The position numbers and the translations under genes are program-made. The notes beneath the pieces are model-generated. The model searched no databases and had not been told where the DNA came from. It saw only the letters and a program-made list of their open reading frames with translations. From positions 33,343-97,342 of the forward strand of contig JAKAJD010000002.1 in the NCBI GenBank assembly GCA_021813945.1: a stretch of 64,000 nt of DNA, written 5' to 3'. The first letter of the stretch is position 1; every line of letters starts with the position of its first letter. Shown here piece by piece: positions 1-17,201 of this stretch. Source of the DNA: a bacterium. GTDB lineage: Bacteria > Patescibacteriota > Microgenomatia > Curtissbacterales > GWA2-41-24.

Positions 1-201
1 CTGGCTGCGGCAAAAAAGCCACATGTTCAGTGACTTGAGCCGTCCATCGTCAAGGCCTGGCCTTGGCCTAAGCCGTATCTTGGAAAAAGGCCTGATCTTT
101 ATATCCAATTTATTTGACTTCACACTACGCTTCTGCCTAATATGGAATTAGAACTCGAGTTTCTAAAACGCCGAGCTTTCAAAGCGGAAGGACAGCCTGC
201 A

Positions 202-2673
202 ATGAAGCCCAAATTTAATCTGCCGTGGTTTTCTAAATACTTATTCTCATTCTTTCTCGTCGCCTTCGTTTTTCTTCTTGCCGGATATATCACAAAACCA
301 GCCAATGCCGCATTTTTTAACATAGTTGATCCGCCAACCTGGTCAGGCGACAATGTGACCTTTAAATGGGACAATCCTGGAACCTCAGCTGCAGTTTTAA
401 TCATTGTTGACTGGGACGACCCAACACATCCATCGGTGTATGACAGTGCAGCCAAAGGTGTATCTCTTTTGGGTAAAACTCAACTAACCGTTTCTACGAC
501 AGATTGGAATATCGCAGTTCACCCACCTGATGGTAGGTTTAAAGTTTCAATTGTCGTCGGTTTGACACTGGTTTCAAACGAAGTAATTTTTACGGTTCCT
601 GTGGTTGGCGCACCCTTATGCGCCTTTACATTCACCCCTACCTCGGTAGCACCAAGTGGACAATTCTTCATACAAAATATAAATGGTGTTGCCGGAAATC
701 CGTTTACTGCCGGATTAAAGGACAGCTCCGGTAGTATTTTATCTAATCCTCCTACTCAAAGTGGCAATTTCCCAGCTTCAAGCTTAACATTCACTGCCCC
801 CTCAAGTGCGGGAAATTATACAGTCTTCGTCCAAGATAATTCCACTAGCCCAGCTACTCAATGTGTAATCCCAGGCCTTTCAAGCAATATCTTAACCGTC
901 GGCTCTGCTTCTCCCCCACCCGGCACTGGCTGCAACATAGTGCCTGCCAATACCAGCTGGGACCCCTTAAAAGCCAGCGTTAACGGCTATGCAGTCACCT
1001 TCACCCTTCCAAAACCTTCAGATGGGATTGCCGGCATAGTCATCGAAAAAGACACAGACGGCACCGTCGCCCAGGATAGCGGCCCTTTGGCGTCTGGCAC
1101 TAACCAATGGATTTGGAACGCTCCAACCGGCTCAGACGGCTCGTATTGTGCCGCAATTTTTTGGACCACGTCTGCAGTTTCCACAGTCATACATTTTACC
1201 GTCCCAAGTGCTGGTAACGACACCTGTACCAGTAACGCTCTAAATTGGGTCAACGACGTCCGCTGCAAAGCTATAGGCGGCGGCTGGTTCGACAGTGATA
1301 TTTTTACCCTAGGCCAAGTTGGAGCCACATTTGACACTGGCAACGTCTTAGTCTGGGGTAAATCTCAACTTAATAGAAACATCAGTGATGCCACCCAAGG
1401 AAGAGGAGCACTTGCCTTAACCAGTAATTTGATTGCATCGCTGTATGCAGCTCCCCCGGCTTCCGGCGTCACTTATTTTGCCCAAAAAATCCAGGACTTA
1501 AACCCTGTCAGATCCGCTTATGCGGGTGCCGGCGGGCAATTCCCCGGTGGCATCGGCTATCAGGCCCTAGGACCGGTTCAAAAAATTTGGGTTGCATTTC
1601 GCAATATTTCCTATATCGGGTTCATAATAGTTTTTGTTGTCATGGGCTTTATGATCATGTTTCGGGCCCACATCTCCCCCCAAGCTGTTGCAACTGTCCA
1701 GGATTCTATCCCCAGAATCGTAATCGCGCTAATTTTGGTCACATTCAGTTACGCCATCGCCGGCTTTATGATCGATTTGATGTTTCTCTTTTTAAACATT
1801 GCAGTACAAGCTCTGGTTAGCACTCATTTGATTTCCAATGCTGACTTCGTTTTCAAAGATAACGTCTTCACGGTAATCTTTAGCAACTGGAAAGACGCGT
1901 TTGGAACCGTCTCTGATGCAATATCAAAAATAATCACTCAAACAATCGATCTTGGGATGTTCAATTTTGTATCTAAGGTGCTGGGATGGGCCGGTGGCAC
2001 ATTAGCAGGCTTGGTAGTTGGCATAGCCCTGCTCTTTATTATGTTCAGGGTATTTTTAATGCTTCTTATGGCCTACGTCATGATTATTCTTTTAACAATG
2101 TTCGCACCTTTCTTTTTCTTAATCCAGGCTCTTCCTGGCAATAACGGCGCCAAGGAGTGGTTTAAGCAAATGGCTTCCAATGTTGCCGTTTTCCCAGTTA
2201 CAGCTATGATGTTTATTTTTGCAGGCATCTTAAGTGGTATGACTGGTCTTGGCGGAACAGGATCCGGGGCAATTCAGCCAGCCCAAGTCGGCCAATTCCC
2301 GCTTTTGATTGGAGGATTGGATGCTGGCGCAATCGGAAATCTAATAGGTATTGGGTTTTTACTTATCACCCCCACTGCAGCCGACATGGTCAAAAACATG
2401 GTTGGCGGCGGCAGAGGCGGAGGCGGCGGTATGGGCAACATCGGCGCAGCGGCCCTTGGCGGGCTTGCTGGCGGCGCTGCAGTTGTAGGCGCAGCAGGCA
2501 GAGGAGCCGGCGGCGCACTAATCTCACGGGGCCCAATCGGCGGCTGGAGAAGAGCCCAAGAGGCAAGGCGTGGTGAAGAAGCGCAACGTACAGCTCACGC
2601 AGGCATTTACAGCAAAGAGTACCGTGAATGGCAAGAACAACTTGCCAAGACTAGAGCCAAAAAAGATGAGTAG
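202..2673 (+). CDS. VirB6/TrbL-like (PrgH/TcpH-type) polytopic membrane protein: N-terminal signal/TM, ~450-aa beta-rich extracellular domain, ~6 C-terminal TM helices, Gly-rich charged C-terminal tail
   Basis: Long ORF (table 142..2673). Start moved to the Met of MKPKF at 202, which has a GGAAGGA RBS 9 nt upstream and precedes the hydrophobic signal segment. The C-terminal half is multi-TM and Trp/Phe-rich like TrbL/VirB6. Family assignment is from architecture and genomic context only. Confidence 0.5.
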   Translation: MKPKFNLPWFSKYLFSFFLVAFVFLLAGYITKPANAAFFNIVDPPTWSGDNVTFKWDNPGTSAAVLIIVDWDDPTHPSVYDSAAKGVSLLGKTQLTVSTTDWNIAVHPPDGRFKVSIVVGLTLVSNEVIFTVPVVGAPLCAFTFTPTSVAPSGQFFIQNINGVAGNPFTAGLKDSSGSILSNPPTQSGNFPASSLTFTAPSSAGNYTVFVQDNSTSPATQCVIPGLSSNILTVGSASPPPGTGCNIVPANTSWDPLKASVNGYAVTFTLPKPSDGIAGIVIEKDTDGTVAQDSGPLASGTNQWIWNAPTGSDGSYCAAIFWTTSAVSTVIHFTVPSAGNDTCTSNALNWVNDVRCKAIGGGWFDSDIFTLGQVGATFDTGNVLVWGKSQLNRNISDATQGRGALALTSNLIASLYAAPPASGVTYFAQKIQDLNPVRSAYAGAGGQFPGGIGYQALGPVQKIWVAFRNISYIGFIIVFVVMGFMIMFRAHISPQAVATVQDSIPRIVIALILVTFSYAIAGFMIDLMFLFLNIAVQALVSTHLISNADFVFKDNVFTVIFSNWKDAFGTVSDAISKIITQTIDLGMFNFVSKVLGWAGGTLAGLVVGIALLFIMFRVFLMLLMAYVMIILLTMFAPFFFLIQALPGNNGAKEWFKQMASNVAVFPVTAMMFIFAGILSGMTGLGGTGSGAIQPAQVGQFPLLIGGLDAGAIGNLIGIGFLLITPTAADMVKNMVGGGRGGGGGMGNIGAAALGGLAGGAAVVGAAGRGAGGALISRGPIGGWRRAQEARRGEEAQRTAHAGIYSKEYREWQEQLAKTRAKKDE

Positions 2674-2675
2674 TT

Positions 2676-5600
2676 TCAGCGTGTTCCAGGTAAAGATTGT
2701 CTTGGCAACTGCTTAAAAAATTCCTTGACAGCTTCCCAAAAAGCCGAAAGCGGCGCATCAGCAACTAGGGTACCTTTAATGTCCCAAGCAATCCTGCGCC
2801 ACTTCTCTCCAAACCGTCTGATATACCTAAATGGCACTGTCCCGAAGAATTCTCCTAATGTTAGGCTTAATTCTTTATCCGTAAAAGGAACCTTCCCTCC
2901 AATTTTGGCAAAACCGAAAAACTTCGTCTTTTCCTTCTCTCCTTGTTTTCTTTCCATATCACCCTGTTGAATCATATCCTGTATGACTTGTTCACCACCG
3001 GCTGCGGTTAGATTAGGTCTGTCAAACAGATCACGCCGATACTTGCTCGCAAATCCCCAATGACCTCTGAATGCTAAAACTGCAAGTATGTGGTCTCTTG
3101 CAAACCTTGTTGAATATGCAAATCCTTTTACACGACTTATCATCGAAACCAGTTTGCTTTCAGTAGGATTACTCAGGTAGTCCTGAATCGTTTCCGGGCC
3201 TTCGGCTTCTAACCCTTTCTTAGCATCTGAAAAATAATCTATAAAACCGAACTTAGTCATCTCCTTATCCTTCGCCACCTGGCTAAACTTTGCCCCCTTA
3301 CTCGAAAAATACAGTGCCCCGTTCTTTATCATATCCATAATAACGACTGACTTCACCCAAGACACTGCTTCCTCATGATATGCCTTAGTGTCAATATCGT
3401 AATCCTTCATCATCTGCCTAATTCGCTGCTCAAAAACTCTTTTTTGATCAGGTGTCATAAACCTATCAGCCCATCGCACCATAAATGAAATCTGGGGCGT
3501 ATAGTAATGATGCTTGCCTGGAAACGCTTGTTTAAAAATCGTGTTCACTTCGTCCTGTTTAGCCCTTCCTCTATTTTCTACATCTTGGTTGAAGTGTGCC
3601 CAAAGGTCATCTCTCGCCCTTCCATGAAAAAGGTTTGTGCTGTGGTGAAATACTACACCGTCAAAATCATCATCAAACTTGCTTTTAGTGTCTTTCGAAT
3701 AAATCCTAATGTACTCCTGTGCACTCCACTGCATCATCCAAGTCCAATTAAATGCGTTATAATCAACAGAACCGAAAAAACCAACCTCCTCAAGCTCGTC
3801 AAAATCCGCATCCTTCAAATGCTCGAAAAATTTACGATACTCATCGCTATCTTCTTCGACAACGTCCTCCATGCTTGGATGGTACGTTCCCCTATAAACC
3901 TTAAGATCCATAGCTTTAAGCTTCTGAATAAGCCTTAACTGTTCTACTTCCCTCCAAACATCCAGATAAGATTTACCAACTCTAGTTTCCAAAAATTTAC
4001 GAATTTCACCCTCATCTTTCCCTAGTCTTCCCAAGAAATCGGCCAAGTCGCCCTTTAACCTCAATGCATGATCATTGCTAATCATCGCGTCGATATCATC
4101 TTGTTTCAAAGTTCCAAAAGCTCCATGGATTGTCCTCTTTTTGTGCCACTCATCAATCAATTCTCTTGTTTCTAAAATAAACTCCCGTCTTTCATCTACT
4201 AAACCTCTTTTTACCCCGCCTAACCTTGCCCAAACATCATCTACCCCGAGTGATTTCCCAGCCCACTTTCCACCAGGTTTTGTGTTGTCTGCAATCAACA
4301 TTGCGGTTCGTTTTCTGAAATAGTCCCTTAATTTATAGAACTCATATTCCCATTTGTCCCTATACGTTCTGCCATCAACCGTCACCGACTGCCTCCATTC
4401 ATCTTCAAGATCTCCAAAACCCTCTCTTGCCTTTATTCGCGACATTAAACTCGCGGAATAATTTCCATCCGTATCTATCGAGAGCCTCGTTAGCTCCTCA
4501 ATCATGTTCATCCTTATCCTGTCGTCATTTACATCCTTACTATAAATATCCTGCAAAGAGACATCATACGTATTTAGCCTTACGTATCTGGTTTTGCCAT
4601 CTTTACCCACCTCTTTAACATAAAACGGCCTCCCCCTTGTATCCTCACCAAATCTTTCAACATAATATTCAACGGTCGTTTCTTTCCTACCTTCAAAACC
4701 GTTGAGTACACCATCAACAGCCGCAGGATGCATATCTTTCTCCTCAAGCGTCATATAAACAGAAAGCATCAGCGCAGAAGCATCGATTCTATCAGCAAGC
4801 GCAGACCTTCTCTCTCTATCTTCTTTCGTCTCAGTTGGTAATACTTGAAGCATTGATTTGGCACTCTGAATCATAGGCCTTAACTCCTCTGGGCCCAGAT
4901 CAAGATCCTCCATAAAACTAAAGATACGTGCAATATTTTTAGGAACATCATCAGGATCGCCTGGAGATCTGAATATCTGGTGCTCTTCCAAAGCTCGCTC
5001 AAGTGTGTAATAGTACCGGCTGGCTTTCCACTGGCGAAGACCTATTGGGTCATCTTTATCTTTAACAGACCCTAAAATATCGGTAGAAGCCTCGTTCAAA
5101 TCACGCCAATCACTCAGCATCGCGCTTAAGTAATGGTTACCTTTTATGACCAAATCGCCAACCTTAGCCTTTTGGTTTTCTGTTGAGTCGTTTTCGTAAA
5201 TTTGTGTGTACCTGTTGTGAATTCTCCGATATAAGTGTGTATGTTCATCGTTCCAACTGATAAACTTGTTCGCGAAGTCAACTCCCCCAAGAGCTTCCAC
5301 AATTTTCTGCCTCCCACCAGCATCCTGAAGCCTATAGACATCGTTAATTGCCTTTGCCACTTCAAAAACATACCTTGCCGAAGCCATTTTTTGAGTTTCA
5401 GTACTGCCATCAGCATTTCTAAAAGGCACATCCACGAACATATCATCGGGGTTTACATGATCTATTTTTACAGCTTCTACGCGCTTAGTGGCCTCCTCAG
5501 CCATATCGGCAAACCTTTTCAATTCGCTGGCGCGATCAGCCCATTCGCCTGATGCCCTATCTTGCTTTAGCATATCTTTAATAAGAGCCTTTAAACCTGT

Positions 5601-6602
5601 GGTCACGGTAAGCAAATGCTCGGCCATTGGAGTTTCCCGATTACTCCTAGTCTCTAATTTCAAAAGTGAATCTACTTTTCTGGAAAGAATATCTCGCACT
5701 TCTGATACTTTAGGATCACTAGCCTCTAATGTTCCATCTAAAACTGCGTTATCGATTGCACTTTCTATATCCGGAAACTTTATTCTCTGAACTTCAAATG
5801 GCCTTAGTTTAGCGAGCTTAATCTCCCGTACGAACCTTTTGAATTTATCATCGATTGTGCTTAAATCTACTTCATCGATCTCCTCGTCAACAGTTTTGGT
5901 TCCACTAGCCCCTGGGCCACCAGTTTTTGGCTCCCAGTCACCTTTTCCTTTATAAGCAGACGAATATTTCTCAATCTTTTCCAGAGTTAAAAACTCACCA
6001 TCATCCAAATCTTTTGCACGCATGACTTCCTCACGTTTCAGTGCTTCTTCAACTCTCCGTTGGTCGCTTCCGGCAGCATATTTGAAATCATCATCAGCCG
6101 GGTCATCCACAACACTGTAATGGAAAATTATCTGCCCAATTGCCATAGCTTCTGTATCACTAATCTTGCCAATCTTCTCATCATCAAAAACTCCGCTTCG
6201 TTTAAGAAGTCGCCTGAAAAGATCCCTGTCTGTATCTGACTCCACGACTTCTTGCCCGTCTCGAATCCTGTTATAAGTAGTCGAGAGTGCTTGCGCCTCC
6301 GCAAATGAAACATGGGGATTCTGCGCAGAACCGGCTTCATTCATGCGCTTTAATACCTCTCGCAATCTTACAGGGTCGAGTGTCAGGCAGAAACTCTCCA
6401 CATCCATTCGCATATCTCCGGATGGCTTAAACCGGGTTTCCCTGGGCTTAGTCGCACTATTTTCTGGAGTAGGCCTTTCTAGTACCGCAACACCAGCCCC
6501 AACAGGCTGCTTTTCCACCACACCAGCATCAGGCATAACAAATATCCCTCCACCTTGAGCGTAGCTGGTTTGGGCAGCGTATGCAACATTTCTCTCGTTC
6601 AT
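2676..6602 (-). CDS. Large (1308 aa) highly charged soluble hypothetical protein; no TM, no Walker motifs, no recognisable catalytic motif
   Basis: Uninterrupted 3.9-kb ORF, divergent from the regulator gene. The composition is D/E/K/R/W-rich. I could find no known domain by eye. Confidence 0.6.
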   Translation of the reverse strand: MNERNVAYAAQTSYAQGGGIFVMPDAGVVEKQPVGAGVAVLERPTPENSATKPRETRFKPSGDMRMDVESFCLTLDPVRLREVLKRMNEAGSAQNPHVSFAEAQALSTTYNRIRDGQEVVESDTDRDLFRRLLKRSGVFDDEKIGKISDTEAMAIGQIIFHYSVVDDPADDDFKYAAGSDQRRVEEALKREEVMRAKDLDDGEFLTLEKIEKYSSAYKGKGDWEPKTGGPGASGTKTVDEEIDEVDLSTIDDKFKRFVREIKLAKLRPFEVQRIKFPDIESAIDNAVLDGTLEASDPKVSEVRDILSRKVDSLLKLETRSNRETPMAEHLLTVTTGLKALIKDMLKQDRASGEWADRASELKRFADMAEEATKRVEAVKIDHVNPDDMFVDVPFRNADGSTETQKMASARYVFEVAKAINDVYRLQDAGGRQKIVEALGGVDFANKFISWNDEHTHLYRRIHNRYTQIYENDSTENQKAKVGDLVIKGNHYLSAMLSDWRDLNEASTDILGSVKDKDDPIGLRQWKASRYYYTLERALEEHQIFRSPGDPDDVPKNIARIFSFMEDLDLGPEELRPMIQSAKSMLQVLPTETKEDRERRSALADRIDASALMLSVYMTLEEKDMHPAAVDGVLNGFEGRKETTVEYYVERFGEDTRGRPFYVKEVGKDGKTRYVRLNTYDVSLQDIYSKDVNDDRIRMNMIEELTRLSIDTDGNYSASLMSRIKAREGFGDLEDEWRQSVTVDGRTYRDKWEYEFYKLRDYFRKRTAMLIADNTKPGGKWAGKSLGVDDVWARLGGVKRGLVDERREFILETRELIDEWHKKRTIHGAFGTLKQDDIDAMISNDHALRLKGDLADFLGRLGKDEGEIRKFLETRVGKSYLDVWREVEQLRLIQKLKAMDLKVYRGTYHPSMEDVVEEDSDEYRKFFEHLKDADFDELEEVGFFGSVDYNAFNWTWMMQWSAQEYIRIYSKDTKSKFDDDFDGVVFHHSTNLFHGRARDDLWAHFNQDVENRGRAKQDEVNTIFKQAFPGKHHYYTPQISFMVRWADRFMTPDQKRVFEQRIRQMMKDYDIDTKAYHEEAVSWVKSVVIMDMIKNGALYFSSKGAKFSQVAKDKEMTKFGFIDYFSDAKKGLEAEGPETIQDYLSNPTESKLVSMISRVKGFAYSTRFARDHILAVLAFRGHWGFASKYRRDLFDRPNLTAAGGEQVIQDMIQQGDMERKQGEKEKTKFFGFAKIGGKVPFTDKELSLTLGEFFGTVPFRYIRRFGEKWRRIAWDIKGTLVADAPLSAFWEAVKEFFKQLPRQSLPGTR

Positions 6603-6647
6603 GTTGCACGTAGATTAACCTAGGCATAAAATGTGTGCTTGATATTT

Positions 6648-6667
6648 AGCTAACAGGAAGCTAACAG
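6648..6667. promoter_or_regulatory. Tandem direct repeat AGCTAACAG-GA-AGCTAACAG overlapping the -35 position of a TATAAT (6682..6687) upstream of the regulator gene; candidate operator
   Basis: Read directly from the sequence. The same GCTAAC core recurs at 8138..8246. Confidence 0.3.
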
Positions 6668-6717
6668 TTCACCCAGTTAGATATAATAGGGATATGTATT
6701 TTGCAACAACGGGGTAA

Positions 6718-7974: not shown

Positions 7975-8137
7975 CAAAATTTGTCGTCAGAATCATTAAC
8001 AAAGGTCAGGCCTTTGTTGGGATATTCATAGCCTAAGACCTGACCTTGAGATAAAGACTGGTCGGTCTCCATCAGCGATAGTTACCAAAACATATCCCAC
8101 CATATCATCAAATTTCTGTGAAAATCGCAAACTTTTG

Positions 8138-8246
8138 AAGCTAATGAGGCCACTTCTCGCACTTGATTTCATATGTTATGGTGGCATAGAAGCTAACCTA
8201 ACGCAAAAATTGCACCGCATTAATCTTTTGTCGTTAGTCGTTAGAC
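8138..8246. promoter_or_regulatory. Cluster of GAAGCTAA(C/T) / CTAAC / GTCGTTAG repeat motifs upstream of the PrgI-like/VirB4 operon
   Basis: GAAGCTAAT at 8138, GAAGCTAACCTAACGC at 8190, and tandem GTCGTTAGTCGTTAG at 8231. GTTAG is the reverse complement of CTAAC. Confidence 0.3.
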
Positions 8247-8252
8247 CTAAAA

Positions 8253-9803
8253 ATGGAGCAGCATCCTGTCCCGCAGCATATAGCGGCTTTTGAATTTAAA
8301 CTATTTGGCAACCTTACTGCAAGACAGTTTATAACTCTCATCTTTCCCCTTTCAATAGCAGCTATAACCTATTTCTCTTCACTTCCTATATTGGTGCGTA
8401 TACCCTTAGCTTTGACAATAGGCATCGTTGGCGCTTTTATTGCCCTTGTTCCTGTCGGCGGTAGACCTTTTGACAAATGGATTTTCGCCTTCATAAAAGC
8501 TGTGTCAGCCCCGACACAAAGAGTCTGGATAAAAGAAAAGCGGATCCCTGGATTTTTAAGTATTGTCACCAAACCTCCCCAAAAAGAGGTCAAAATTCCC
8601 CAGGAAATCACCGAAAAAGGTAGAGAAAGAATGATTGCTTATTTACGTTCTCTTCCAAAAGAAAATGTCACTTCTTTAGACATCAAGGAACAACTGGCCC
8701 TAGATAGGCTTGGCTTTCCGGCAAGCCAGTATGAAGGCAACTTGCCGCCCGCAATTCTTTGGCCCGTTAGCCCTTGGGAAGATAAATACGTAGCAATAGG
8801 GCAAGGCGAATCAGGTTATCTTTTGGGTTCTTTGCCACAAGTTGCTGGTCCGCTTGAGGAAATTCCCCAAAGCCAGACAGCTCCGGTTTTAGAACCCGAA
8901 CCAAGACCCCAAATAACATCCCAACAGGCTGCCCCATCAGCTGTTACGCGTGCAAAAATCCAGCCGCAAGCAAAACAGTTTACTCTTTCTGGCCTCGAAA
9001 AGCGCCTGGATCATAAACCACAGGAAATAATTGATCTTGCCAGACCCAGCGCCCATCTTGCCTCGGAAACAAACTATTCGCTCGACAACGTAATTCCCAT
9101 CAAAATCTCCGAGGGCCAATTTCGCCTTGTGCACGGAGTCGGCAACACCAGGGTCAGAAAGCTTCACTTTGCACCTCCAGCAAATTTTGATCTTTCTAAA
9201 CTACCAATTCGCGGAGAGCGCAAATTCGACATTTCAGACGAACTTAAAAAAAGATATCATTTCGAAGACGATTCTCCAGCAGTAGTTTTACCTATTCAAC
9301 AAGAAAAGATTCAAGCTGCACCGCAAGCAGTTGATGTTCCCGAGGCAAACCCAATACCCTTACCCAAACCAGAAGCCGTCCACTTACCCGACGAGCATCA
9401 TGCCAAACTAGCACCCAAACAGGAGGAAAAACCCAAAGTGGAAAAAAGTGAATTTTCTCAATTTTCTATATCGGATAAAGATCAAAACCAGCAAACTGGA
9501 AACGTCCAGCAAGCTCAAATCATTCCCCTAACTGACAAGCCAAACATCCTTTCGGGACTCGTAACAGACGAAAAAGGAAGCCCCATCGAAAGTGCCGTTC
9601 TGGTTGTCCGCGACGAAAGCGGAATACCGGTCAGAGCCTTAAAAACCAACAAGCTTGGCCAATTTCTTTCCGCCACCCCGCTTTCCAGCGGTAGCTACAC
9701 AATTGAGGCAGAAAGTGATCTTGCCTCCTTTAAACCAGTCTCAATACATTTAACCGGCCAAATTCTCGCTCCGATTGGAGTCAAAGGAGAAAGGATAAAC
9801 TAA
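8253..9803 (+). CDS. PrgI/VirB3-like N-terminal two-TM domain fused via a Pro/Gln-rich linker to a C-terminal carboxypeptidase-regulatory-like (CarboxypepD_reg / Cna-B-like) beta-sandwich domain
   Basis: The N-terminus (FEFKLFGNLTARQFITL...GGRPFDKWIFAF) matches the PrgI-family pattern. The C-terminus (GLVTDEKGSPIESAVLVV...GSYTIEAE) matches CarboxypepD_reg. Confidence 0.5.
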   Translation: MEQHPVPQHIAAFEFKLFGNLTARQFITLIFPLSIAAITYFSSLPILVRIPLALTIGIVGAFIALVPVGGRPFDKWIFAFIKAVSAPTQRVWIKEKRIPGFLSIVTKPPQKEVKIPQEITEKGRERMIAYLRSLPKENVTSLDIKEQLALDRLGFPASQYEGNLPPAILWPVSPWEDKYVAIGQGESGYLLGSLPQVAGPLEEIPQSQTAPVLEPEPRPQITSQQAAPSAVTRAKIQPQAKQFTLSGLEKRLDHKPQEIIDLARPSAHLASETNYSLDNVIPIKISEGQFRLVHGVGNTRVRKLHFAPPANFDLSKLPIRGERKFDISDELKKRYHFEDDSPAVVLPIQQEKIQAAPQAVDVPEANPIPLPKPEAVHLPDEHHAKLAPKQEEKPKVEKSEFSQFSISDKDQNQQTGNVQQAQIIPLTDKPNILSGLVTDEKGSPIESAVLVVRDESGIPVRALKTNKLGQFLSATPLSSGSYTIEAESDLASFKPVSIHLTGQILAPIGVKGERIN

Positions 9804-9804
9804 A

Positions 9805-10707
9805 GTGGCTCCTTCTGCCCAAAAAATTAAGGCTTCAACCCAAGAGCATTTGGATATTGAAGACATAACCGAAGACTTTGTAATTTTAAAAACCGGCTGG
9901 GTTGCTATGGTCCTTTCCACAACCGCAGTTAATTTTGACATCCTCTCCGAAGCCGAGCAAGATGCGACTATTTACGCTTATGGTGCCCTTTTAAATTCCC
10001 TAACCTTCCCCATCCAGATTTTAATCCGTTCCAAAAGAGCAGATATAACAGCCTATTATCAACATTTAGTCGAAGCGGAAAGAAACCAGCAAAACCCTGA
10101 TCTCAAACGCCAAATTCAAAAATATATGGACTTCATCCAGTCTACCGTTCAGCAAAAAACCATTCTTGACAAGCGCTTTTACCTTATACTTAGCTTTTCC
10201 CCAATCGAACTCGGCTTAACTGGCATCAAAAAACCTGCAAAAACCAGCAACAAAGAGCAACAAGTTCAAGACGCTAAAGTTGCCCTAGCGCCAAAACGCG
10301 AACATTTAATTAAACAAACGGCCCGCCTAGGTCTTACTACCAAACAGCTCACCACAAAAGAGTTAATTGAACTGTTTTATGACATTTACAATCCTGCTCC
10401 CACTGGCACCCAAAGAGTTATTCTGGACTCCGCCTCCTACACAACCCCCATGGTCGAGCCAGCCGTTGAAGTGCCAAGCCCCGCGCCGAATCAGCCACCA
10501 CCAACTTATACTCAGGAACCTTCCCAGGCACCTATACCACAACCAGCTTATGCCGATTCTCTGCCTAATATTAACGGGCAACAATCAGCCCCTTCACAAA
10601 TGGAGGCTCTGGAAAACCTCAAGGCGGCAACCGCCAAAGCCGCGCAATCAATACGCGGAGAACAGCAAATAAGTCCCAACCAAACAAACCAAACAATCCA
10701 GCAATGA
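9805..10707 (+). CDS. Hypothetical T4SS-associated protein, translationally coupled to VirB4 (ATGA overlap); Pro-rich C-terminus
   Basis: ORF lying between the PrgI-like and VirB4 genes. The N-terminal segment (DIEDITEDFVILKTGW...NFDILSEAEQDATIYAYGALLNSL) loosely resembles the N-terminal region of VirB4/TraC proteins. Confidence 0.45.
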   Translation: MAPSAQKIKASTQEHLDIEDITEDFVILKTGWVAMVLSTTAVNFDILSEAEQDATIYAYGALLNSLTFPIQILIRSKRADITAYYQHLVEAERNQQNPDLKRQIQKYMDFIQSTVQQKTILDKRFYLILSFSPIELGLTGIKKPAKTSNKEQQVQDAKVALAPKREHLIKQTARLGLTTKQLTTKELIELFYDIYNPAPTGTQRVILDSASYTTPMVEPAVEVPSPAPNQPPPTYTQEPSQAPIPQPAYADSLPNINGQQSAPSQMEALENLKAATAKAAQSIRGEQQISPNQTNQTIQQ

Positions 10708-12578
10708 ACCTCGTTAGCATTCTAAAACCAAAAAACAAAAACCCCCAGGAATCTTTAAGTGATAAGGAGAAACAGTGGTCGCAGAGCCTGGCCAAAGGTG
10801 TCGTTTCCGTCAAAGACATTATTGCTCCACCAGCCATCGAGGTTGACTTCGACTATATCAAAATCGGCTCAACCTACTTTCGTACTCTTTTTGTCGTCGG
10901 CTACCCAAGGTACGTCCAAGCCAATTGGCTTTCACCTCTAATTAATTTCGTCCACACTTTGGAAATTTCCATGTACCAATATCCGGTAGAAGCCAAAGGT
11001 GTTTTGGATGATCTTAAGCGTAAAGTTACCGAAATGGAAGCTACCATCGCATCTGACATCCAGCACGGTAAAGTCTTAGACCCTGCCGTTCAAGCTGCCC
11101 TAGAAGACGCCCAGATGCTTCAGGAAGAGCTGGTCAAAGGACAGGAGCGCTTTTTCCAGTTCGGCCTTTATGTCACCATCCCGGCCGACTCAAAAGAGGA
11201 GTTGGACCTGGTCACCAGACAGGTTGAATCGACAATGGGCGCCCTACTTTTGGTTCCTAAACACGCTACATTGCAAATGGAAGATGCCTTCAAAACAACT
11301 CTTCCTCAACAAACCGACCATCTCTATATCACCCGCAACATGGACACCACCTCCCTTGCCACAACTTTTCCATTCATCTCCTCATCGCTAACCTCCAACA
11401 CTGGCATCATGTACGGCATAAACGAGCACAATGGTTCGTTGGTTATTTTCGACCGATTCACTCAAGAAAACGCCAATTCCGTAATCTTTGCCAAATCCGG
11501 AGCCGGAAAATCTTACCTTGTCAAACTAGAGGCCCTAAGGTCGCTGATGTTTGGTACGGAAGTAATCGTCGTCGACCCTGAAGAAGAATATAAAAACCTT
11601 TGTGAAGCCATCGGTGGTGAATACATCACTTTTAGCTTTGACTCGCCGGCTAAAATTAACCCTTTTGACCTTTCGGGCGTTTATGAAGAAGGCGAAAACG
11701 AGCTTGGCTTAAAAATTCTTTCTCTTCACGGCTTTTTCAAAGTCGTCATGGGCAATATGAGCCCCGCCGAAGATGCGGTTTTAGACAAAGCCCTTGTTGA
11801 CACTTACAGACAAAAAGGCATTACTCCCGACCCGTCTACCCAGAAAAACGAGCCGCCTCTCATGGAAGATCTCTACAAGGTGCTACTCGGCATGGAAGAA
11901 GTTGAAGCCAAAAGCCTTGCTGATCGCATTGAAAAATTCGTCAAAGGTTCTTTAATCGGCATTTTTAACCAACAATCCAATATCGATCTGCGCAACACCT
12001 TTACCGTCTTTTCCGTCAAAAGCCTGGAGGAAGAACTTCGGCCAATTGCCATGTATCTCATTTTGGATTTTATCTGGACAAGAATTAAAAACGACATCCG
12101 AAAACGCCTTCTTGTTGTCGATGAGGCCTGGTACATGATGGAATTCCCAGACAGCGCTACCTTCCTTTATTCAATCGCCAAACGCGCTCGCAAATACTAC
12201 CTTGGCCTCACCACCATTTCCCAGGACGTTGAAGATTTTTTAAGTACTGATTACGGCAAAGCTATCGTCACTAACTCCTCCTTTCAAATACTTTTGAAAC
12301 AATCTCCTGCTGCAATCGACAAAGTTGCCGAAGTCTTTTACCTTTCCGAGGGTGAAAGGCACTTGCTTTTGGCAGCCGACGTTGGTGAAGGCATCTTTTT
12401 TGCTGGTCCTAACCATGTAGCGGTCCGTATTATGGCATCAGAAGAGGAACACGCCTTGGTTACTACCAACCCGGAAGAGCTAAAACAAAGACGAGATCAG
12501 CAAGAAGCAGCATCAGCACACCAAAACCAAGATTCCCAACCATCGCAAACACCATCTCTTCCAAACACATCTCAATAA
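10704..12578 (+). CDS. virB4: VirB4/TraC/TrsE-like type IV secretion ATPase
   Basis: Walker A FAKSGAGKSY and Walker B RLLVVDEAWYMM. The N-terminal segment IEVDFDYIKIGSTYFRTLFVVGYPRYV is typical of Gram-positive-type VirB4. Length is 624 aa. Confidence 0.8.
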   Translation: MNLVSILKPKNKNPQESLSDKEKQWSQSLAKGVVSVKDIIAPPAIEVDFDYIKIGSTYFRTLFVVGYPRYVQANWLSPLINFVHTLEISMYQYPVEAKGVLDDLKRKVTEMEATIASDIQHGKVLDPAVQAALEDAQMLQEELVKGQERFFQFGLYVTIPADSKEELDLVTRQVESTMGALLLVPKHATLQMEDAFKTTLPQQTDHLYITRNMDTTSLATTFPFISSSLTSNTGIMYGINEHNGSLVIFDRFTQENANSVIFAKSGAGKSYLVKLEALRSLMFGTEVIVVDPEEEYKNLCEAIGGEYITFSFDSPAKINPFDLSGVYEEGENELGLKILSLHGFFKVVMGNMSPAEDAVLDKALVDTYRQKGITPDPSTQKNEPPLMEDLYKVLLGMEEVEAKSLADRIEKFVKGSLIGIFNQQSNIDLRNTFTVFSVKSLEEELRPIAMYLILDFIWTRIKNDIRKRLLVVDEAWYMMEFPDSATFLYSIAKRARKYYLGLTTISQDVEDFLSTDYGKAIVTNSSFQILLKQSPAAIDKVAEVFYLSEGERHLLLAADVGEGIFFAGPNHVAVRIMASEEEHALVTTNPEELKQRRDQQEAASAHQNQDSQPSQTPSLPNTSQ

Positions 12579-12665
12579 CTTTAGATTTACTCCCCAGCCT
12601 TTTTCATCATTATTAAGTCTACTTTGCTTTAAGTTAGAAGTTGCTAGTATATTTAATTAGGCCCC

Positions 12666-14669
12666 ATGTCTGTTTTGGATAAAATCAAAAAACTTAAAAA
12701 TCTTAAAAACCTCAACCCCGAAAGCCAAGTATCGCAGCTTGCCAAAAAAGCCGCAATGTATCTATCTCTTGGTGTCTCAGCCGCATTTTTAGCCGCCTTG
12801 GCATATTTCGCCCACCTCGGAAAAGTTGCTTTCTTTGGTTTCAAAATCGGCGCAACTGCAGGTGGTACGGCAGGCGCAATATGGGGTGGATATATAGGTA
12901 TTCAAGTTGGAATCGCATTAGCACCATACACCTTTGGCATTTCATTGATAGTCGCCCCGCCCCTTGGAGTACTTATTGGTGCCATAGGTGGTGCCACCTT
13001 GCTGGGAATAGCCGGCGGTCTGATCGCCCTCGGCCTCGATCAAGGCTCTGCAGGCCTGGTTTCAACCGGAGTCGGAGCGGGTGTGGGAGGCATCATTGGC
13101 ACCTACGTAGCAGGCGCATTTATTTCGTTTGCAATTGGAGCGTGCGCAGCTACAGTCTTTGGGTGCCTTTTAGTGCCTATCGCAGTGGTATCCGCCCCAA
13201 TCATAATTGTAACCTTCAGTGCTATAGGAGCTGGTGCGGGTTACCTAATTGGCAACTATGTAATTGATCCTGTCAAATCTTATATTGGTGGAGTCTCGAT
13301 AAGTGGTTCCGCCTCAGGCTTCTTGTCTTGGCTTGGCGGGGGAATTACTGGATTGGGATCTTGGGCTGTGGGCGGTCTCTTCAGCCTTGGTGGCTTAGCA
13401 GTAGACGGTATAACCAGCATTGGTAGTAAGCTCTTGGGAACGCTTTCCACCAGCGCAGGTCCTCTTGCTGGGAAATTAGCGGGTATCTCAGTAGGGACAG
13501 CTTTCACATCGGCAGCTACACTGAGCTTACTTCAAACAGGGGTCCTAACCCCTGGGAAATTCGCAACAACCCAGACGGATATATCTAAACCGGCTGGGGC
13601 CAACCAATATGTAACCGTCACTAAAACCGCCAACCCTACTACAATCTCCAATTCAAGCTTACCAACCGACATCAACTACTTGGTTACAGTAAAGGTCAAT
13701 TCTTACGCCTTAACCAACGTCGTCTGCACCGATGTTACAACATTGAAAAAGAGTGATGGAACTACTCAAAACTTAACTAATACTTTAATAGGGCCCCTTT
13801 GCCCTTCACAACTTAACCCTGCCCAAGTTCTTACATTTAATCTTTCAACTCATGCGGACAACACTCCCGACTTTATCAATTCGACAGTTTCCAACACTTT
13901 CACCATTAACTTTGACGTCACCGGTGGAGGGGCTCCACCTCCCACGGGAGGCGGCGGCCCATGCAGTGCAAACAGCGGTTTTAATGCTCTCCTGCCTAAC
14001 CCTATACCACCAAGCGTCGGCGCCACATCACCCAGCTCTTTGCCTCCAGACCCTGCAATCATCCAGGCAGCCCAGCAAGCAACTTTGCAAACTGGCGTAC
14101 CTTGCGAAATGCTAGTCGGCATTCAATACCGCGAAGCCGGCTGGGATGCCAATAGCTCGTTTTTAAGCGGAACCACATTGTGTTCGTCAGGAAATTTTGC
14201 CATATGCAAACCGGAACCCAACATTACGTCTTCATCAGCATGTACCGGTTATGGCGGTACCTGGTACTCTGGCGGGTGCTATTTTACAAGTTTAAATCAA
14301 ACCGCTTTAGCATCAGCAAGTTACATTCTGGGCGAGGTCTCGTCACTTACTCGCGGGCCCGAACGCCCACCAAAAAATTACGATGAAATGATAGGAGCAA
14401 TGTCATATTATAATGGCGGCGGCAATGCTAATTGCGGAGCCGGGGTACCTTACACGGGGCCTTGCCCTGGCCCTATTGGGATTGACGATCCTTATGCAGT
14501 CAATCATTTTGATTCTGACCACGCAACAATGTACCTTCTCTATTGCAGCCAATATACCGACGCCAGCGGAGTTGTCCATGGGATACCTTGCGACCCTCCC
14601 CGAGTCTTAACAACAGACGGTGCGGCAACCGCAGCCAAAGAGTATTATTTAAAGATAGGCGGTCACTAG
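12666..14669 (+). CDS. Polytopic membrane protein with an extreme Gly-zipper N-terminal region (~280 aa, many GxxxG) and a Cys-rich extracellular C-terminal domain; possible cell-wall-lytic or adhesin-like function
   Basis: The composition comes from the translation. The C-terminal segment VPCEMLVGIQYREAGWD is weakly lysozyme/SLT-like but not convincing. Confidence 0.5.
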   Translation: MSVLDKIKKLKNLKNLNPESQVSQLAKKAAMYLSLGVSAAFLAALAYFAHLGKVAFFGFKIGATAGGTAGAIWGGYIGIQVGIALAPYTFGISLIVAPPLGVLIGAIGGATLLGIAGGLIALGLDQGSAGLVSTGVGAGVGGIIGTYVAGAFISFAIGACAATVFGCLLVPIAVVSAPIIIVTFSAIGAGAGYLIGNYVIDPVKSYIGGVSISGSASGFLSWLGGGITGLGSWAVGGLFSLGGLAVDGITSIGSKLLGTLSTSAGPLAGKLAGISVGTAFTSAATLSLLQTGVLTPGKFATTQTDISKPAGANQYVTVTKTANPTTISNSSLPTDINYLVTVKVNSYALTNVVCTDVTTLKKSDGTTQNLTNTLIGPLCPSQLNPAQVLTFNLSTHADNTPDFINSTVSNTFTINFDVTGGGAPPPTGGGGPCSANSGFNALLPNPIPPSVGATSPSSLPPDPAIIQAAQQATLQTGVPCEMLVGIQYREAGWDANSSFLSGTTLCSSGNFAICKPEPNITSSSACTGYGGTWYSGGCYFTSLNQTALASASYILGEVSSLTRGPERPPKNYDEMIGAMSYYNGGGNANCGAGVPYTGPCPGPIGIDDPYAVNHFDSDHATMYLLYCSQYTDASGVVHGIPCDPPRVLTTDGAATAAKEYYLKIGGH

Positions 14670-15256
14670 TGAAACTAAGTCTTACATCGGTCAAAAAAGA
14701 AACTCTCCCTTTAGCTATTTTGGCAACCATTATTATCATTCTATTGGGCTTTGTAATTACCCAGCAAATACTGAAAAACAGACCGTTCCAAACTGCACAA
14801 TTACCTCCCCCCATCAAACTTCAGCCCGTTGTTAATGGAAAATTTGACACAAATGCTCCAATAAGCCAAAAATCTAAAGCTTCGGTTGAGCTTTTAAAAC
14901 AACATCTGCCTTACAAAGCAGATTTTGTTAGTACAACAGGAGATAAAATAACCTACACCCTGTATGGCAAAACTATAGACCCTTATACATTGTATGTGGA
15001 TATATCCAATATAGATTTTTTAATACCTTCAACAAATCCCAATTATCCCAAAACTATTCAAGATTTCCGTGACACAGCTAATCATATTTTCGAATATATG
15101 AAACAATATAACGCCAACCCGTCAGATGTTTTTATTTCCTGGGGCAGCCAAGCATACATTCAAAACAACGCAGAGTTGTGGCTTACTGTTTCTGACAAAT
15201 TTCCACCCGTGGTAAAAAAGGATAACCAATATATTTTTGAAACACCGCCGAAATGA
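14669..15256 (+). CDS. Bitopic membrane protein (N-terminal TM, ~160-aa ectodomain); candidate VirB8-like subunit (speculative)
   Basis: The table ORF at 14543 overlaps the preceding gene. A GTG at 14669 overlaps the upstream TAG by 1 nt and precedes the TM helix LPLAILATIIIILLGFVI. Confidence 0.4.
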   Translation: MKLSLTSVKKETLPLAILATIIIILLGFVITQQILKNRPFQTAQLPPPIKLQPVVNGKFDTNAPISQKSKASVELLKQHLPYKADFVSTTGDKITYTLYGKTIDPYTLYVDISNIDFLIPSTNPNYPKTIQDFRDTANHIFEYMKQYNANPSDVFISWGSQAYIQNNAELWLTVSDKFPPVVKKDNQYIFETPPK

Positions 15257-15867
15257 TAAGAACGACTTTCTATATTCAGAAATTAAGATTAATAATCGCT
15301 ATTATCGACGCAATAATCATATTAATAATGTTCCCTTATACGGTTTTTGCCGCCAGCTTTTCCGGTTCCGCAACGGCCGTGACCATAATCGGCACCTCAT
15401 CATCTCAATGCCCACAAAGCTGGCCTTTGGCTCATGGTTACATCACTCAAGGACCTCAAGGAACAACAAGTCATTACCGGCTATATCCAAATGAGCAAGC
15501 AATTGACATCGGCGGCAATCCTACAGATACTCCTGCTTTCGCCACATTTTCTGGAACTGTGCTTGTTGCCCAAACCGACTATACCCCCGGTGTTGGTTAT
15601 GGCAGATATGTCGATATTCAAGGCACTTGCAATGGCGCTGCCTTTACAGGCCGCTGGGCTCACTTAGACTATATCGATGGAGCGGTCACAGTTGGAAGTA
15701 AGGTCAATTTCGGACAACTAATAGGAGGTATTGACAACACAGGTAATAGTGAGGGCACGCATTTGCATTATTCTTTTCTAGGTCTAACAATGGGAACACC
15801 ATACATCCCTCAAAATCCGGCTTTTTCGACGTGTAATTCAAACGTTGCTTGTAATATTAATTGGTAA
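15253..15867 (+). CDS. Secreted peptidase M23 (LytM-type) family protein
   Basis: Signal peptide present. M23 motifs are HYRLYPNEQAIDIGG and the C-terminal NSEGTHLHYSF (HxH). Confidence 0.8.
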   Translation: MIRTTFYIQKLRLIIAIIDAIIILIMFPYTVFAASFSGSATAVTIIGTSSSQCPQSWPLAHGYITQGPQGTTSHYRLYPNEQAIDIGGNPTDTPAFATFSGTVLVAQTDYTPGVGYGRYVDIQGTCNGAAFTGRWAHLDYIDGAVTVGSKVNFGQLIGGIDNTGNSEGTHLHYSFLGLTMGTPYIPQNPAFSTCNSNVACNINW

Positions 15868-16916
15868 ATATGTTTGACTTAACTACAATTCAAAAAAATA
15901 AATTTAAAATAGCTGCAGGGATTTTCCTGGTCCTAGTCTTAATCTTTATAAATTTGGCAATCTTAGGGAAAATACAAAGCAAAAGTAAAAAGACCTCAGA
16001 ACAGCCCCAGTCCCCAAAAATTCCAACGATTTACCAAAATCCAGCACAAAAGCAACCAAAACGCTTTGATTTTTCAACTCTGAATCAAATTGCATACCCG
16101 CAAAATCTTCCGGTATATACTGCACAGAAAAATCAGATCGACCTAAGTAAAGCGCAAGCCATTGCGGCTAAATTTTCCTTCACTGGAGAGCCATCGAAAG
16201 TCATTAACAGCACAGCAGACGGAACACAGTTTAGCTGGTTTGACAAAAATCGCATCTTGGCAATAAGCCAGACAACAATTAGGTTCGACGACCAAACTCA
16301 AAACTCTTCCAACTCGCTAGCAGAGGAAGACCTTAAAAATAAAGCCTCAGATTTTATTAATTCTTTACCCTTAATTGGGTCAGGTCTCGTATTAAATGAT
16401 AAAAAAACCGCCTACTACGCTTACAGCAACTCCAAGCTTATCAGTGCTTCATCTTTTGCTGATTCACAGTATGTCCAGTTTTCTTTTGACAGAAATCTGT
16501 CGAATAATCCAATATACAATTCGGCCTTAAATCCCTCTTACTTAACAATTTCAATCAAAAAAGATGGAAACATCAATCAACTTTACACTAAAATATTTTC
16601 AGATTTTACCGCCAATGGTCAATACCCGCTCAAAACATTGGATGAAGCAAAAAAGGAGATAGAAAATGGGCAAGGTAAAATTGTTAATACCTTCATGCCA
16701 GATAAAAACGGCCAAGCATTACAGCTCTATCAACTCCAGCCAAACGATATTTCAATTGCCAAATTTAACAACGTGGCCCTTGCCTATTTTTTGCCAGTCT
16801 CAACCTCAGAAAATATTGTGCCAATATTTGTTTTTACCGGCGATTTCCTAACCTACTCAAACCAAACAGGCAAAATAGTACTCTACTTACCGGCTATCCA
16901 AACCTCTCAACCTTAA
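15861..16916 (+). CDS. Bitopic membrane protein (N-terminal TM, ~310-aa ectodomain), hypothetical
   Basis: ORF with an N-terminal TM helix (IAAGIFLVLVLIFINLAILG). No domain recognised. Confidence 0.45.
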   Translation: MVNMFDLTTIQKNKFKIAAGIFLVLVLIFINLAILGKIQSKSKKTSEQPQSPKIPTIYQNPAQKQPKRFDFSTLNQIAYPQNLPVYTAQKNQIDLSKAQAIAAKFSFTGEPSKVINSTADGTQFSWFDKNRILAISQTTIRFDDQTQNSSNSLAEEDLKNKASDFINSLPLIGSGLVLNDKKTAYYAYSNSKLISASSFADSQYVQFSFDRNLSNNPIYNSALNPSYLTISIKKDGNINQLYTKIFSDFTANGQYPLKTLDEAKKEIENGQGKIVNTFMPDKNGQALQLYQLQPNDISIAKFNNVALAYFLPVSTSENIVPIFVFTGDFLTYSNQTGKIVLYLPAIQTSQP

Positions 16917-17201
16917 ATCTTTGATAATTTTTCCCCCGAGCTCTTTATTTATTGTCTCTCTCAGCCCGCTAAAGCGCATTTGAAGTTCGGCAGCGACAAT
17001 CTGCGGTGCAGAAACCGTCAGTACACCTCTCTTGTAAGATCTAACCTTAACCGCATCAAGCAAATCTTTAGGGAAATCAAAAAACTCTCTTTCAATCGAT
17101 GCTTTTGCAATTTGCCTTATTCTTAGAGCCAAAATCGCATCAGGGGTCTTTGATCGCGAAACAGAAGTACCAATAAGACTTCCTAAAGATTTAAAGGCCA
17201 T
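16887..17201 (-). CDS. dciA: DUF721-family protein (DciA-like helicase-loader candidate) downstream of dnaN
   Basis: 104 aa. The segment GVLTVSAPQIVAAELQMRFSGLRETIN fits the DUF721 pattern, and its position next to dnaA-dnaN is typical for DciA. Confidence 0.55.
   Translation of the reverse strand: MAFKSLGSLIGTSVSRSKTPDAILALRIRQIAKASIEREFFDFPKDLLDAVKVRSYKRGVLTVSAPQIVAAELQMRFSGLRETINKELGGKIIKDLRLRGLDSR

Follow-up and report, generated by a model that had tools for sequence, protein, structure and literature searches.

We analyzed a 64-kb stretch of bacterial DNA (hereafter the window) whose first ten open reading frames (ORFs), at positions 142-16916, make up a locus related to type IV secretion systems (T4SSs) and lying beside dnaN and dnaA. 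Named homologues of the window's genes come from Curtissbacteria, Microgenomates, Roizmanbacteria, Shapirobacteria, Chisholmbacteria, and similar groups, and judged by these matches the organism is a Curtissbacteria-like Microgenomates bacterium within the candidate phyla radiation (CPR). Identical copies of its proteins are found on public contigs as long as 976 kb. An initial annotation of the window had described nine co-directional genes at this place. All of its ORFs are present where it put them, and nine genes of the locus do lie on the plus strand; the run is broken, however, by a minus-strand gene for a 1308-aa protein (2676-6602) that the annotation did not mention. The first gene also begins upstream of the annotated position 202, since on public contigs with identical genes the start is at 142, giving a protein of 843 aa. 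The features of the locus and of its immediate neighborhood are collected in Table 1; three genes are named after their families (PrgI, TrsD, and VirB4) and the others are lettered A-C and G-J. Between the end of the last T4SS gene and dnaN lie 298 nt, and dnaA follows next.

Table 1. Genes of the T4SS locus and the adjoining replication genes, with the length of each product or the basis of its assignment
Feature	Position	Strand	Product and basis
Gene A, candidate "extended VirB6-like" channel protein	142..2673	+	843 aa; topology, position
Gene B, soluble acidic orphan	2676..6602	-	1308 aa; opposite direction to rest of locus
Gene C, AAA_22 P-loop and OmpR/CadC-type winged helix	6718..7974	+	418 aa; Pfam/NCBIfam matches
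Extended PrgI/VirB3-like protein	8253..9803	+	516 aa; PF12666, PF13620
TrsD-like protein, detached VirB4 N-terminal domain	9805..10707	+	300 aa; NF041427, NF045975
VirB4 motor ATPase, CD1110 / MPF_FATA type	10704..12578	+	624 aa; NF045971, P-loop_TraG, 4ag5
Gene G, predicted N-terminal fragment of T4SS wall hydrolase	12666..14669	+	667 aa; fused to M23 in relatives
Gene H, transmembrane anchor and ~150-aa ectodomain, lineage-specific insert	14669..15256	+	195 aa; one homologue (L005)
Gene I, transmembrane/signal segment and M23 domain, predicted C-terminal hydrolase fragment	15253..15867	+	204 aa; Peptidase_M23
Gene J, YycI/PepSY-like ectoprotein	15861..16916	+	351 aa (348 aa from ATG at 15870); predicted fold
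dciA-like gene	16887-17201	-	DciA PF05258 E=2.7e-4, below cutoff
dnaN	17214-18353	-	Pfam annotation of identical public contig
dnaA	18579-19937	-	Pfam annotation of identical public contig

The locus encodes a VirB4 motor of the CD1110 family

The ATPase encoded in the middle of the locus matches the NCBIfam model NF045971, "VirB4-like conjugal transfer ATPase, CD1110 family" (E=1e-114; 384 bits against a cutoff of 325), as well as the Pfam families P-loop_TraG (3e-30) and AAA_10 (2e-12) and the solved VirB4 ATPase domain 4ag5 (E=2.6e-51). Walker A (AKSGAGKS) and Walker B (LLVVDEAW) motifs can be read in its translation. The match to TIGR00929 VirB4_CagE remains below cutoff (122 bits vs 643). 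These specific matches bear out the earlier identification of the gene as virB4, and the finding that would have undone it, a product resembling generic P-loop NTPases only, was looked for and is not what we see, as the NF045971 cutoff is exceeded. Across 80 Microgenomatia species the protein is 63-93% identical, compared with ~26% to PrgJ, the VirB4 of plasmid pCF10, and at most 39% to plasmid VirB4s among the at least 5000 matches listed from a search set of 72,556 plasmids.

The gene directly upstream encodes a TrsD-like protein (NF041427 TrsD/TraD, 2.9e-9; TraC-like PF26593 in the precomputed Pfam annotation) that also matches positions 99-234 of the model NF045975 VirB4_plasma (2.3e-8), of which the ATPase gene covers positions 273-889. 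Because the TrsD-like gene matches the N-terminal part of full-length VirB4 and its stop overlaps the ATPase start by 4 nt (10704-10707), VirB4 is split into two genes in this organism, and the overlap indicates that these are translationally coupled.

Residues 5-91 of the PrgI protein match PrgI PF12666 (E=3.5e-9; 37.5 bits against a cutoff of 27) and contain two predicted transmembrane (TM) helices (26-44 and 46-71), in keeping with the two-TM PrgI/VirB3-like module annotated at the start of this gene. The N-terminal module is followed by an extension of ~420 aa, predicted to be cytoplasmic, in which a ~340-aa Pro/Gln-rich linker leads to a C-terminal CarboxypepD_reg-like beta-sandwich (PF13620, 3e-6). 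Long PrgI homologues are usual in Microgenomatia loci, with a median of 396 aa versus ~117 aa in pCF10.

The locus is conserved and follows the chromosome

For comparison, a scan of one genome per species yielded 80 Microgenomates loci (±10 kb each), whose contents we analyzed by local tblastn, iterative hidden Markov models (HMMs), and clustering. The PrgI-TrsD-VirB4 triad is found in 73-79 of the 80 loci (PrgI in 73-77, the TrsD-like gene in 74-79), and in ~57 of the 80 species, which span several candidate phyla, dnaN/dnaA are no more than 10 kb away from VirB4. VirB4 is more conserved than DnaA in 58 of 58 loci, than DnaN in 57 of 57, and than YidC in 51 of 51, with a median identity of 66% versus 38, 35, and 36%, respectively. 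This excess in every locus compared points to very strong selection acting on the motor. The identity of VirB4 correlates with that of DnaN (rho 0.68), YidC (0.59), and DnaA (0.39).

The window contains no tRNA genes, no flanking direct repeats occur in its first 22 kb (from the T4SS locus up to and including yidC), and no integrase was found; on these grounds we rejected an integrative and conjugative element (ICE) as the reading of the locus. Because synteny with dnaN/dnaA is kept, VirB4 tracks DnaN and YidC, and tRNA genes and flanking repeats are absent from these regions, the locus is chromosomal and behaves as a vertically inherited, strongly constrained core function and not as a mobile element.

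Conjugation genes were not found, and pilins lie upstream in a relative

Pfam scans of 30 window ORFs, namely the ten of the locus and 20 others including every other ORF of at least 400 aa, revealed no second T4SS ATPase, coupling protein, or relaxase. In a Walker-A scan of the window, the real P-loops are those of VirB4 and DnaA only. VirB11, checked through the Pfam and Walker-A scans only, was likewise not found among the window ORFs. Searches by tblastn (E<=0.01) with PcfC (VirD4) and PcfG (relaxase) of pCF10, and with the FtsK-type coupling protein Orf21 and the MobT protein Orf20 of Tn916, gave 0 matches in the window and 87 related loci (1.56 Mb in total), with the positive controls PrgJ and Tn916 Orf16 matching 88 of 88 sequences and 57, respectively. 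The absence of VirD4, VirB11, and relaxase genes from the window, as first annotated, is therefore supported, by the scans for all three and by controlled tblastn searches for the coupling protein and relaxase. The hallmark of a conjugative system of the mating-pair formation class MPF_FATA, a linked relaxase with a VirD4/FtsK-type coupling protein, was not detected at the locus, and DNA conjugation is unlikely because both are missing.

The window begins 141 nt before gene A, and its upstream side was approached through other genomes. In a close relative (VirB4 90%, PrgI 75%, and A 47% identical), the 10 kb upstream of A hold four genes of the T4SS_pilin family PF18895, located 6-10 kb upstream of A, along with genes for a 938-aa surface protein and a 396-aa protein; no relaxase, coupling-protein, or integrase Pfam match is present in these 10 kb. 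A conjugative module adjacent to the locus, which the initial annotation had named as grounds for abandoning its view, was thus sought in the upstream region of one close relative and not found. The 3 kb upstream of the window in its own organism, read from public contigs of 14-18 kb that carry identical genes and reach no farther, encode a homologue of the 938-aa protein (61-65% identical). Small pilin-like ORFs are absent from the intergenic gaps, and within ±10 kb they occur in six of the 80 loci. Because the syntenic close relative carries PF18895 genes there, the locus probably extends past the upstream edge of the window into an array of VirB2-like pilins. The view that the locus is not a conjugative element accordingly stands within the regions searched and agrees with its vertical behavior.

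Small four-helix-bundle genes of PF05635 (23S_rRNA_IVP, a family that includes the Avd proteins of diversity-generating retroelements) are scattered in the T4SS loci of relatives, beside pilin and surface-protein genes: at 4699-5067 and 9505-9876 of locus L085, and in L011, L014, L027, L044, L045, and L047 (cluster 19). The window has none.

A giant wall hydrolase is split into three genes

The earlier assignment of gene I as an M23 wall hydrolase is upheld by a Peptidase_M23 match (E=1.2e-13). The HxH motif and the central histidine of this domain are kept, and the first zinc-ligand histidine of the HxxxD motif reads as glutamate (ExxxD). In the product of gene G, a Gly-zipper multi-TM region (residues 29-192) precedes a beta-rich ectodomain that is conserved (~300-435), and the C-terminal domain (435-667) is specific to the lineage. 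The counterpart of G residues ~300-435 is joined to the M23 domain in a single protein of ~690-1610 aa in 32 related loci; this protein consists of a cytoplasmic N-domain, Gly-zipper TM helices, the beta-rich domain, and the M23 domain, and its gene is placed directly after VirB4 or directly before PrgI. These fusions indicate that G and I both derive from a single giant M23 hydrolase, anchored in the membrane, whose gene has been broken into G, H, and I in the window lineage, with fragment I as the predicted functional equivalent of VirB1. A dedicated cell-wall hydrolase next to virB4, which is a feature of MPF_FATA systems, is thus present in the form of a predicted M23 enzyme.

Neither G nor H has a family match in Pfam, NCBIfam, PHROG, or PDB searches. 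The sole homologue of H is in L005, the species nearest to that of the window (41% identical), and the C-terminal domain of G is restricted to the window species and L005. By eye, this domain contains an SLT-like motif (GVPCEMLVGIQYREAGWDANS ... SYYNGGG), for which no HMM or PDB support was obtained, also when the domain was searched alone; since the Pfam, NCBIfam, PHROG, and PDB searches returned nothing, we treat the motif as an eye-read lead only.

The J family directly follows the hydrolase in 26-27 loci. J has no sequence-search match in Pfam, NCBIfam, PHROG, or PDB, and comparison by hhalign with PrgL, Orf13 of Tn916, and a 364-aa neighbor of the VirB4 gene in Pontibacillus was not significant. 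A word-indexed profile search gave seven proteins for J and 13 for A, so the alignments behind the structure models were shallow. The AlphaFold2 (AF2) model of J (pLDDT 77.9, pTM 0.67) shows a TM helix and three PepSY/YycI-like alpha/beta repeats, and Foldseek matches it to YycI (E=4.6e-8). A TM-anchored protein of the VirB8-like NTF2 fold (of the PrgL, TraM, or TcpC type) was not found, the fold of J being different. On the strength of the AF2 fold and the Foldseek match, J is best described as a YycI/PepSY-like ectoprotein and not as a canonical VirB8. J nevertheless occupies the position of a VirB8-like protein (PrgL/TcpC), namely that of PrgL in pCF10 and of Orf13 in Tn916, and J and the hydrolase form a conserved pair. 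Of the three membrane or ectodomain genes first described as belonging to no known family, G is thereby accounted for as part of the hydrolase and J as YycI/PepSY-like, whereas for H the description holds; the structural search that had been proposed matched J to YycI.

Gene A is a candidate channel protein

Gene A encodes a signal/TM segment, an N-terminal ectodomain of ~430 aa, at least six TM helices between residues 482 and 701, and a charged tail rich in glycine, and it has no Pfam, NCBIfam, PHROG, or PDB match. Its family occurs in 21 of the 80 Microgenomatia loci, always upstream of PrgI-TrsD-VirB4. In a library of 1.84 billion proteins, 3,699 cluster representatives (50% identity clusters; E<=1e-3) belong to it, typically of ~500 aa. 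Weak matches to TrbL/VirB6 PF04610 are seen for five of 89 members (best E 2.4e-4) and to TrbC/VirB2 for seven of 89 (best 1.4e-5). By hhalign, A resembles a 779-aa polytopic protein in the same position of the Pontibacillus VirB4 cluster (probability 64.6%, E 6.3e-5), and comparisons with PrgH and Orf15 of Tn916 were not significant. The AF2 model of the C-terminal half (pLDDT 52.7) was too poor for a fold search. The VirB6/PrgH-like architecture first attributed to A therefore fits in topology and position, but no Pfam or NCBIfam match and no significant similarity to PrgH or Orf15 accompany it, and these data lend weak support to A as a VirB6-type channel protein.

Genes B and C are restricted to a few relatives

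Homologues of B are found only in eight Curtissbacteria-like loci and L085, and no family or PDB match was obtained in the Pfam, NCBIfam, PHROG, and PDB searches, even with a ten-sequence profile. The protein is 24.5% identical over 379 aa to its counterpart in L005, whose VirB4 shows 93% identity and whose A and C show 69%, and 33% identical to that in L085, whose VirB4 shows 90%. From these identities B appears to be the fastest-evolving gene of the locus. In at least nine more distantly related loci, the site beside A is taken by large minus-strand orphans unrelated to B. It is tempting to speculate that B is an effector, a substrate, or an adaptor, and a search for cargo or specificity could plausibly begin with it.

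Gene C combines a Trans_reg_C domain (E=1.1e-19; residues 342-415), where many OmpR-family NCBIfam models also match, at the C terminus only, with an AAA_22 match (2.3e-5). It is present in seven Curtissbacteria-like loci and L085; in most of these, the window among them, it lies immediately before PrgI, and its domains and placement suggest that it is probably a transcriptional regulator of the downstream operon.

Comparison with known type IV secretion systems

The closest counterpart is the T4SS of the Patescibacteria clade. A survey of CPR genomes (Quinonero-Coronel et al. 2025, PMC12102498) described the VirB4s of CPR bacteria as a monophyletic clade within MPF_FATA, with TrsD as the commonest accessory component, abundant pilin arrays, relaxases in only 103 of 3,035 genomes, and coupling proteins rarely near virB4. 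In the same survey the T4SS is close to dnaA/dnaN in Microgenomatia and Paceibacteria, VirB6 is "scarce," and VirB8 is nearly undetected in Microgenomatia. The window agrees in its MPF_FATA-like VirB4, in the TrsD-like and PrgI/VirB3-like genes directly upstream of virB4, in the peptidase/lysozyme-type hydrolase genes downstream of it, in having no relaxase or coupling protein nearby, and in its chromosomal place beside dnaA/dnaN; VirB2-like pilin arrays are linked to the locus in relatives of the window organism. Membership of its VirB4 in the clade follows from similarity (CD1110 family; 63-93% identity within Microgenomatia versus at most 39% among the plasmid matches listed), which is a similarity comparison and not a tree. 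The window differs in that three genes, including a lineage-specific insert, take the place of a single hydrolase gene, and in that the AAA_22 and winged-helix regulator and the hypervariable 1308-aa orphan stand between A and PrgI. It departs from the published survey in having the polytopic family A and the YycI/PepSY-like J in the VirB6 and VirB8 positions, and in showing no skew switch at dnaA.

The Prg/Pcf system of the Enterococcus faecalis plasmid pCF10, the MPF_FATA prototype, has the same gene order: VirB6-like, PrgI, VirB4 (PrgJ), hydrolase (PrgK), and PrgL. Its VirB4 falls in the same CD1110 family as that of the window. In contrast, pCF10 has PcfC, the PcfG relaxase, and adhesins, none of which is present in the window, and it has no pilins. 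Its hydrolase PrgK is a single protein annotated as "phage tail tip lysozyme," which we take to carry SLT and CHAP domains, whereas that of the window uses M23; its PrgL has the VirB8-like NTF2 fold instead of the YycI/PepSY-like fold of J; and its PrgH has no detectable similarity to A.

Among the plasmid matches listed, the best VirB4 (CD1110 family, 38.8% identical) is encoded on the Pontibacillus megaplasmid NZ_CP062975. It belongs to a module of matching gene order, in which two Mbov_0395-type pilin-like genes and the gene for the polytopic protein of 779 aa come first, followed by genes for VirB3/TraL-like (116 aa) and TrsD-like (274 aa) proteins, VirB4, and a 1050-aa NlpC/P60 and M23 hydrolase. 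This module has no relaxase or coupling protein within 12 kb, and its replicon is typed as non-mobilizable. It differs from the window in lying on a Firmicutes replicon and not next to dnaA, and in having no J-family homologue and no B or C gene. The module (at 351-362 kb of the plasmid; L088 in our set) is found beside flagellar genes. Pilins are likewise part of VirB4 modules in Mycoplasma ICEs (families Mbov_0395 and Mbov_0397), and the TrsD-like protein and VirB4 of the window match the Mycoplasma model VirB4_plasma.

The proteins whose fold resembles J are known from Bacillus, where YycI and YycH are regulators of WalK, itself a regulator of wall hydrolases, and YpeB is the partner of the lytic enzyme SleB. 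They have no sequence similarity to J (10-16% identity), and J is distinct from them in its three repeats and its place in a T4SS operon, with no WalK-type kinase or SleB present. Finally, Helicobacter pylori ComB and crenarchaeal Ced are T4SS-derived systems that, like that of the window, work without a relaxase. ComB is a diderm system of VirB2-4 and VirB6-10 whose outer-membrane core is not present in the window locus, and the match of the window VirB4 to CedB reaches 41 bits against a cutoff of 700, with no CedA-type proteins detected in the locus. No partner families of either system (ComB2, 3, and 6-10; CedA/A1/A2) were found in the locus, and we do not assign it to them.

Interpretation of the locus

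Taken together, these data point, with a probability that we put at about 0.8, to a chromosomal, vertically inherited T4SS of the Patescibacteria clade, an MPF_FATA derivative, in a Curtissbacteria-like member of the Microgenomates. The same conclusions have already been published (PMC12102498; reviewed in PMC12857230), and no new principle is added here. The window provides a well-resolved Microgenomates example of the CPR T4SS that sharpens what to test.

In such a system, VirB4 hexamers docked via TrsD and PrgI would power channel assembly and transport, with A as the candidate channel, a divergent analogue of VirB6. The M23 hydrolase would open the wall locally, and J might restrain or position it, by analogy with YpeB and SleB, PepSY propeptides and their proteases, or YycI and WalK. 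Linked pilins, whose array is probably upstream of the window, would build a VirB2-like external filament, and C would activate the operon. The machine would most likely move proteins or other molecules between episymbiont and host cell, or build a contact structure, and would not conjugate DNA. The homologous cluster is essential for the epibiotic growth of S. epibionticum, in which the T4SS genes SEML1_0006-0019 have no recognizable coupling protein or relaxase (Wang et al. 2023, PMC10633639); the host interaction proposed at the outset thus agrees with published Saccharibacteria genetics. Among T4SSs, that of CPR bacteria was the first found to be essential to its own bacterium, and no substrate of it is known (reviewed in PMC12857230).

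Several points weigh against this reading. Its functional part is carried over from Saccharibacteria by homology, and to our knowledge no Microgenomates bacterium has been cultured. A pilin HMM finds no match in the 64-kb window or in the 3 kb upstream of it, and in the M23 domain of gene I the first zinc ligand is non-canonical. For A, the VirB6 role is argued from topology, position, and weak profile matches, with the PrgH and Orf15 comparisons failing and the model unusable. In addition, VirD4 homologues exist in most CPR genomes, far from virB4 (PMC12102498).

The alternative that survives best, though we consider it improbable, is a DNA-uptake machine like ComB or the archaeal Ced system, importing host DNA as a source of nucleotides or for transformation. 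ComB is among the T4SSs that lack a coupling protein and relaxase, CPR bacteria cannot make nucleotides, a T4SS of the class ABY1 is found beside comF, recG, and radA (PMC12102498), and the window VirB4 does match CedB weakly (E=8.8e-11). That match is far below its cutoff, however, and compares with 384 bits for the CD1110 family, and the locus contains no equivalents of ComB/VirB7, VirB9, or VirB10 and no competence genes. Moreover, competence in S. epibionticum depends on type IV pili and ComEC: deletion of comEC ends transformation with viability kept, whereas the T4SS is essential (PMC12857230). Of the "contact-dependent secretion or DNA-uptake machine" originally suggested, we therefore retain a T4SS-type machine of monoderm, MPF_FATA-like character, and regard ComB-like uptake as disfavored by the literature.

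Somewhat less probable still is that the locus has no translocator and that VirB4 powers the assembly of a surface filament or adhesin, a VirB2-like pilus, for host attachment only. In relatives, the locus is linked to pilin arrays, A and the neighboring upstream genes encode large surface domains, the coupling protein that is the usual substrate receptor is absent, and VirB4 is a pilus-biogenesis ATPase in Gram-negative systems (PMC12102498). Adhesion in Saccharibacteria, by contrast, has been attributed to type IV pili (PMC10633639), and the present data do not separate a filament from secretion, which can coexist.

Very unlikely, lastly, is the MPF half of an ordinary integrated conjugative element with its coupling protein, relaxase, oriT, and integrase outside the window: VirB4, PrgI, and TrsD have homologues among conjugation proteins, the upstream side does fall outside the window given where gene A begins, and the GC content of the locus (0.42-0.47) is above that of most of the rest (0.35-0.40), but two further stretches reach 0.42-0.45 and other conserved window genes (GroEL, CTP synthase) share the higher GC, relaxases are as rare among CPR genomes as cited above (PMC12102498), and the conserved dnaN/dnaA order, the parallel divergence of VirB4 and housekeeping genes, the pilin and surface-protein genes upstream in the relative, the controlled tblastn searches of 1.56 Mb, and the lack of tRNA genes or flanking repeats all speak against it.

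Beyond the preferred reading of a vertically inherited Patescibacteria-clade T4SS, what the window adds is, in order of support, the split hydrolase, J as a hydrolase partner, the conservation of VirB4, the orphan B, and the A family as a VirB6 analogue. These are incremental leads and not a new system. It is conceivable, although we think it doubtful, that they combine into a Microgenomates variant of the CPR T4SS in which a channel of the A family (at least 3,699 clusters) is used, J controls the giant M23 hydrolase in place of VirB8, and B, taken as a cytoplasmic protein, is a possible lineage-specific cargo or host-specificity factor, all of them components missed by published HMM surveys. 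If so, B would be the first candidate substrate for a CPR T4SS. The candidate VirB6 analogue family A is very widespread.

The replication origin and neighboring genes

The position "next to oriC" given in the initial annotation is borne out as far as the marker genes dnaN and dnaA adjoin the locus, but other signs of an origin do not accompany them. Plus-strand GC skew and GC3 skew are negative over all 64 kb, in genes of both orientations, and do not switch sign at dnaA. The count of DnaA boxes shows no enrichment (20 matches vs 16.4 expected, three of them near dnaA). Of 41 related loci, 22 do show a sign change of the skew at dnaA-dnaN; the T4SS side is negative there, so that the T4SS genes would be head-on to replication. 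An origin next to the locus is thus plausible for the group, and in the window genome it rests on the marker genes. The published idea of gene dosage near oriC does not hold by GC skew in the window genome.

A scan for promoters and terminators gave counts no higher than in shuffled sequence. Farther along, a 496-aa ORF on the minus strand (56137-57627) among cell-envelope genes has no Pfam family and an incidental Walker-A-like sequence (AREVKGKS), and has no relation to the T4SS as far as tested. Past dnaA, the plus strand carries rnpA, yidC, and a KH/R3H gene, and beyond 20 kb the Pfam scans showed only housekeeping genes among the ORFs covered, encoding for example leucyl-tRNA synthetase (LeuRS), TsaD, CTP synthase, GroEL, methionyl-tRNA synthetase (MetRS), a penicillin-binding protein (PBP), and glycosyltransferases.

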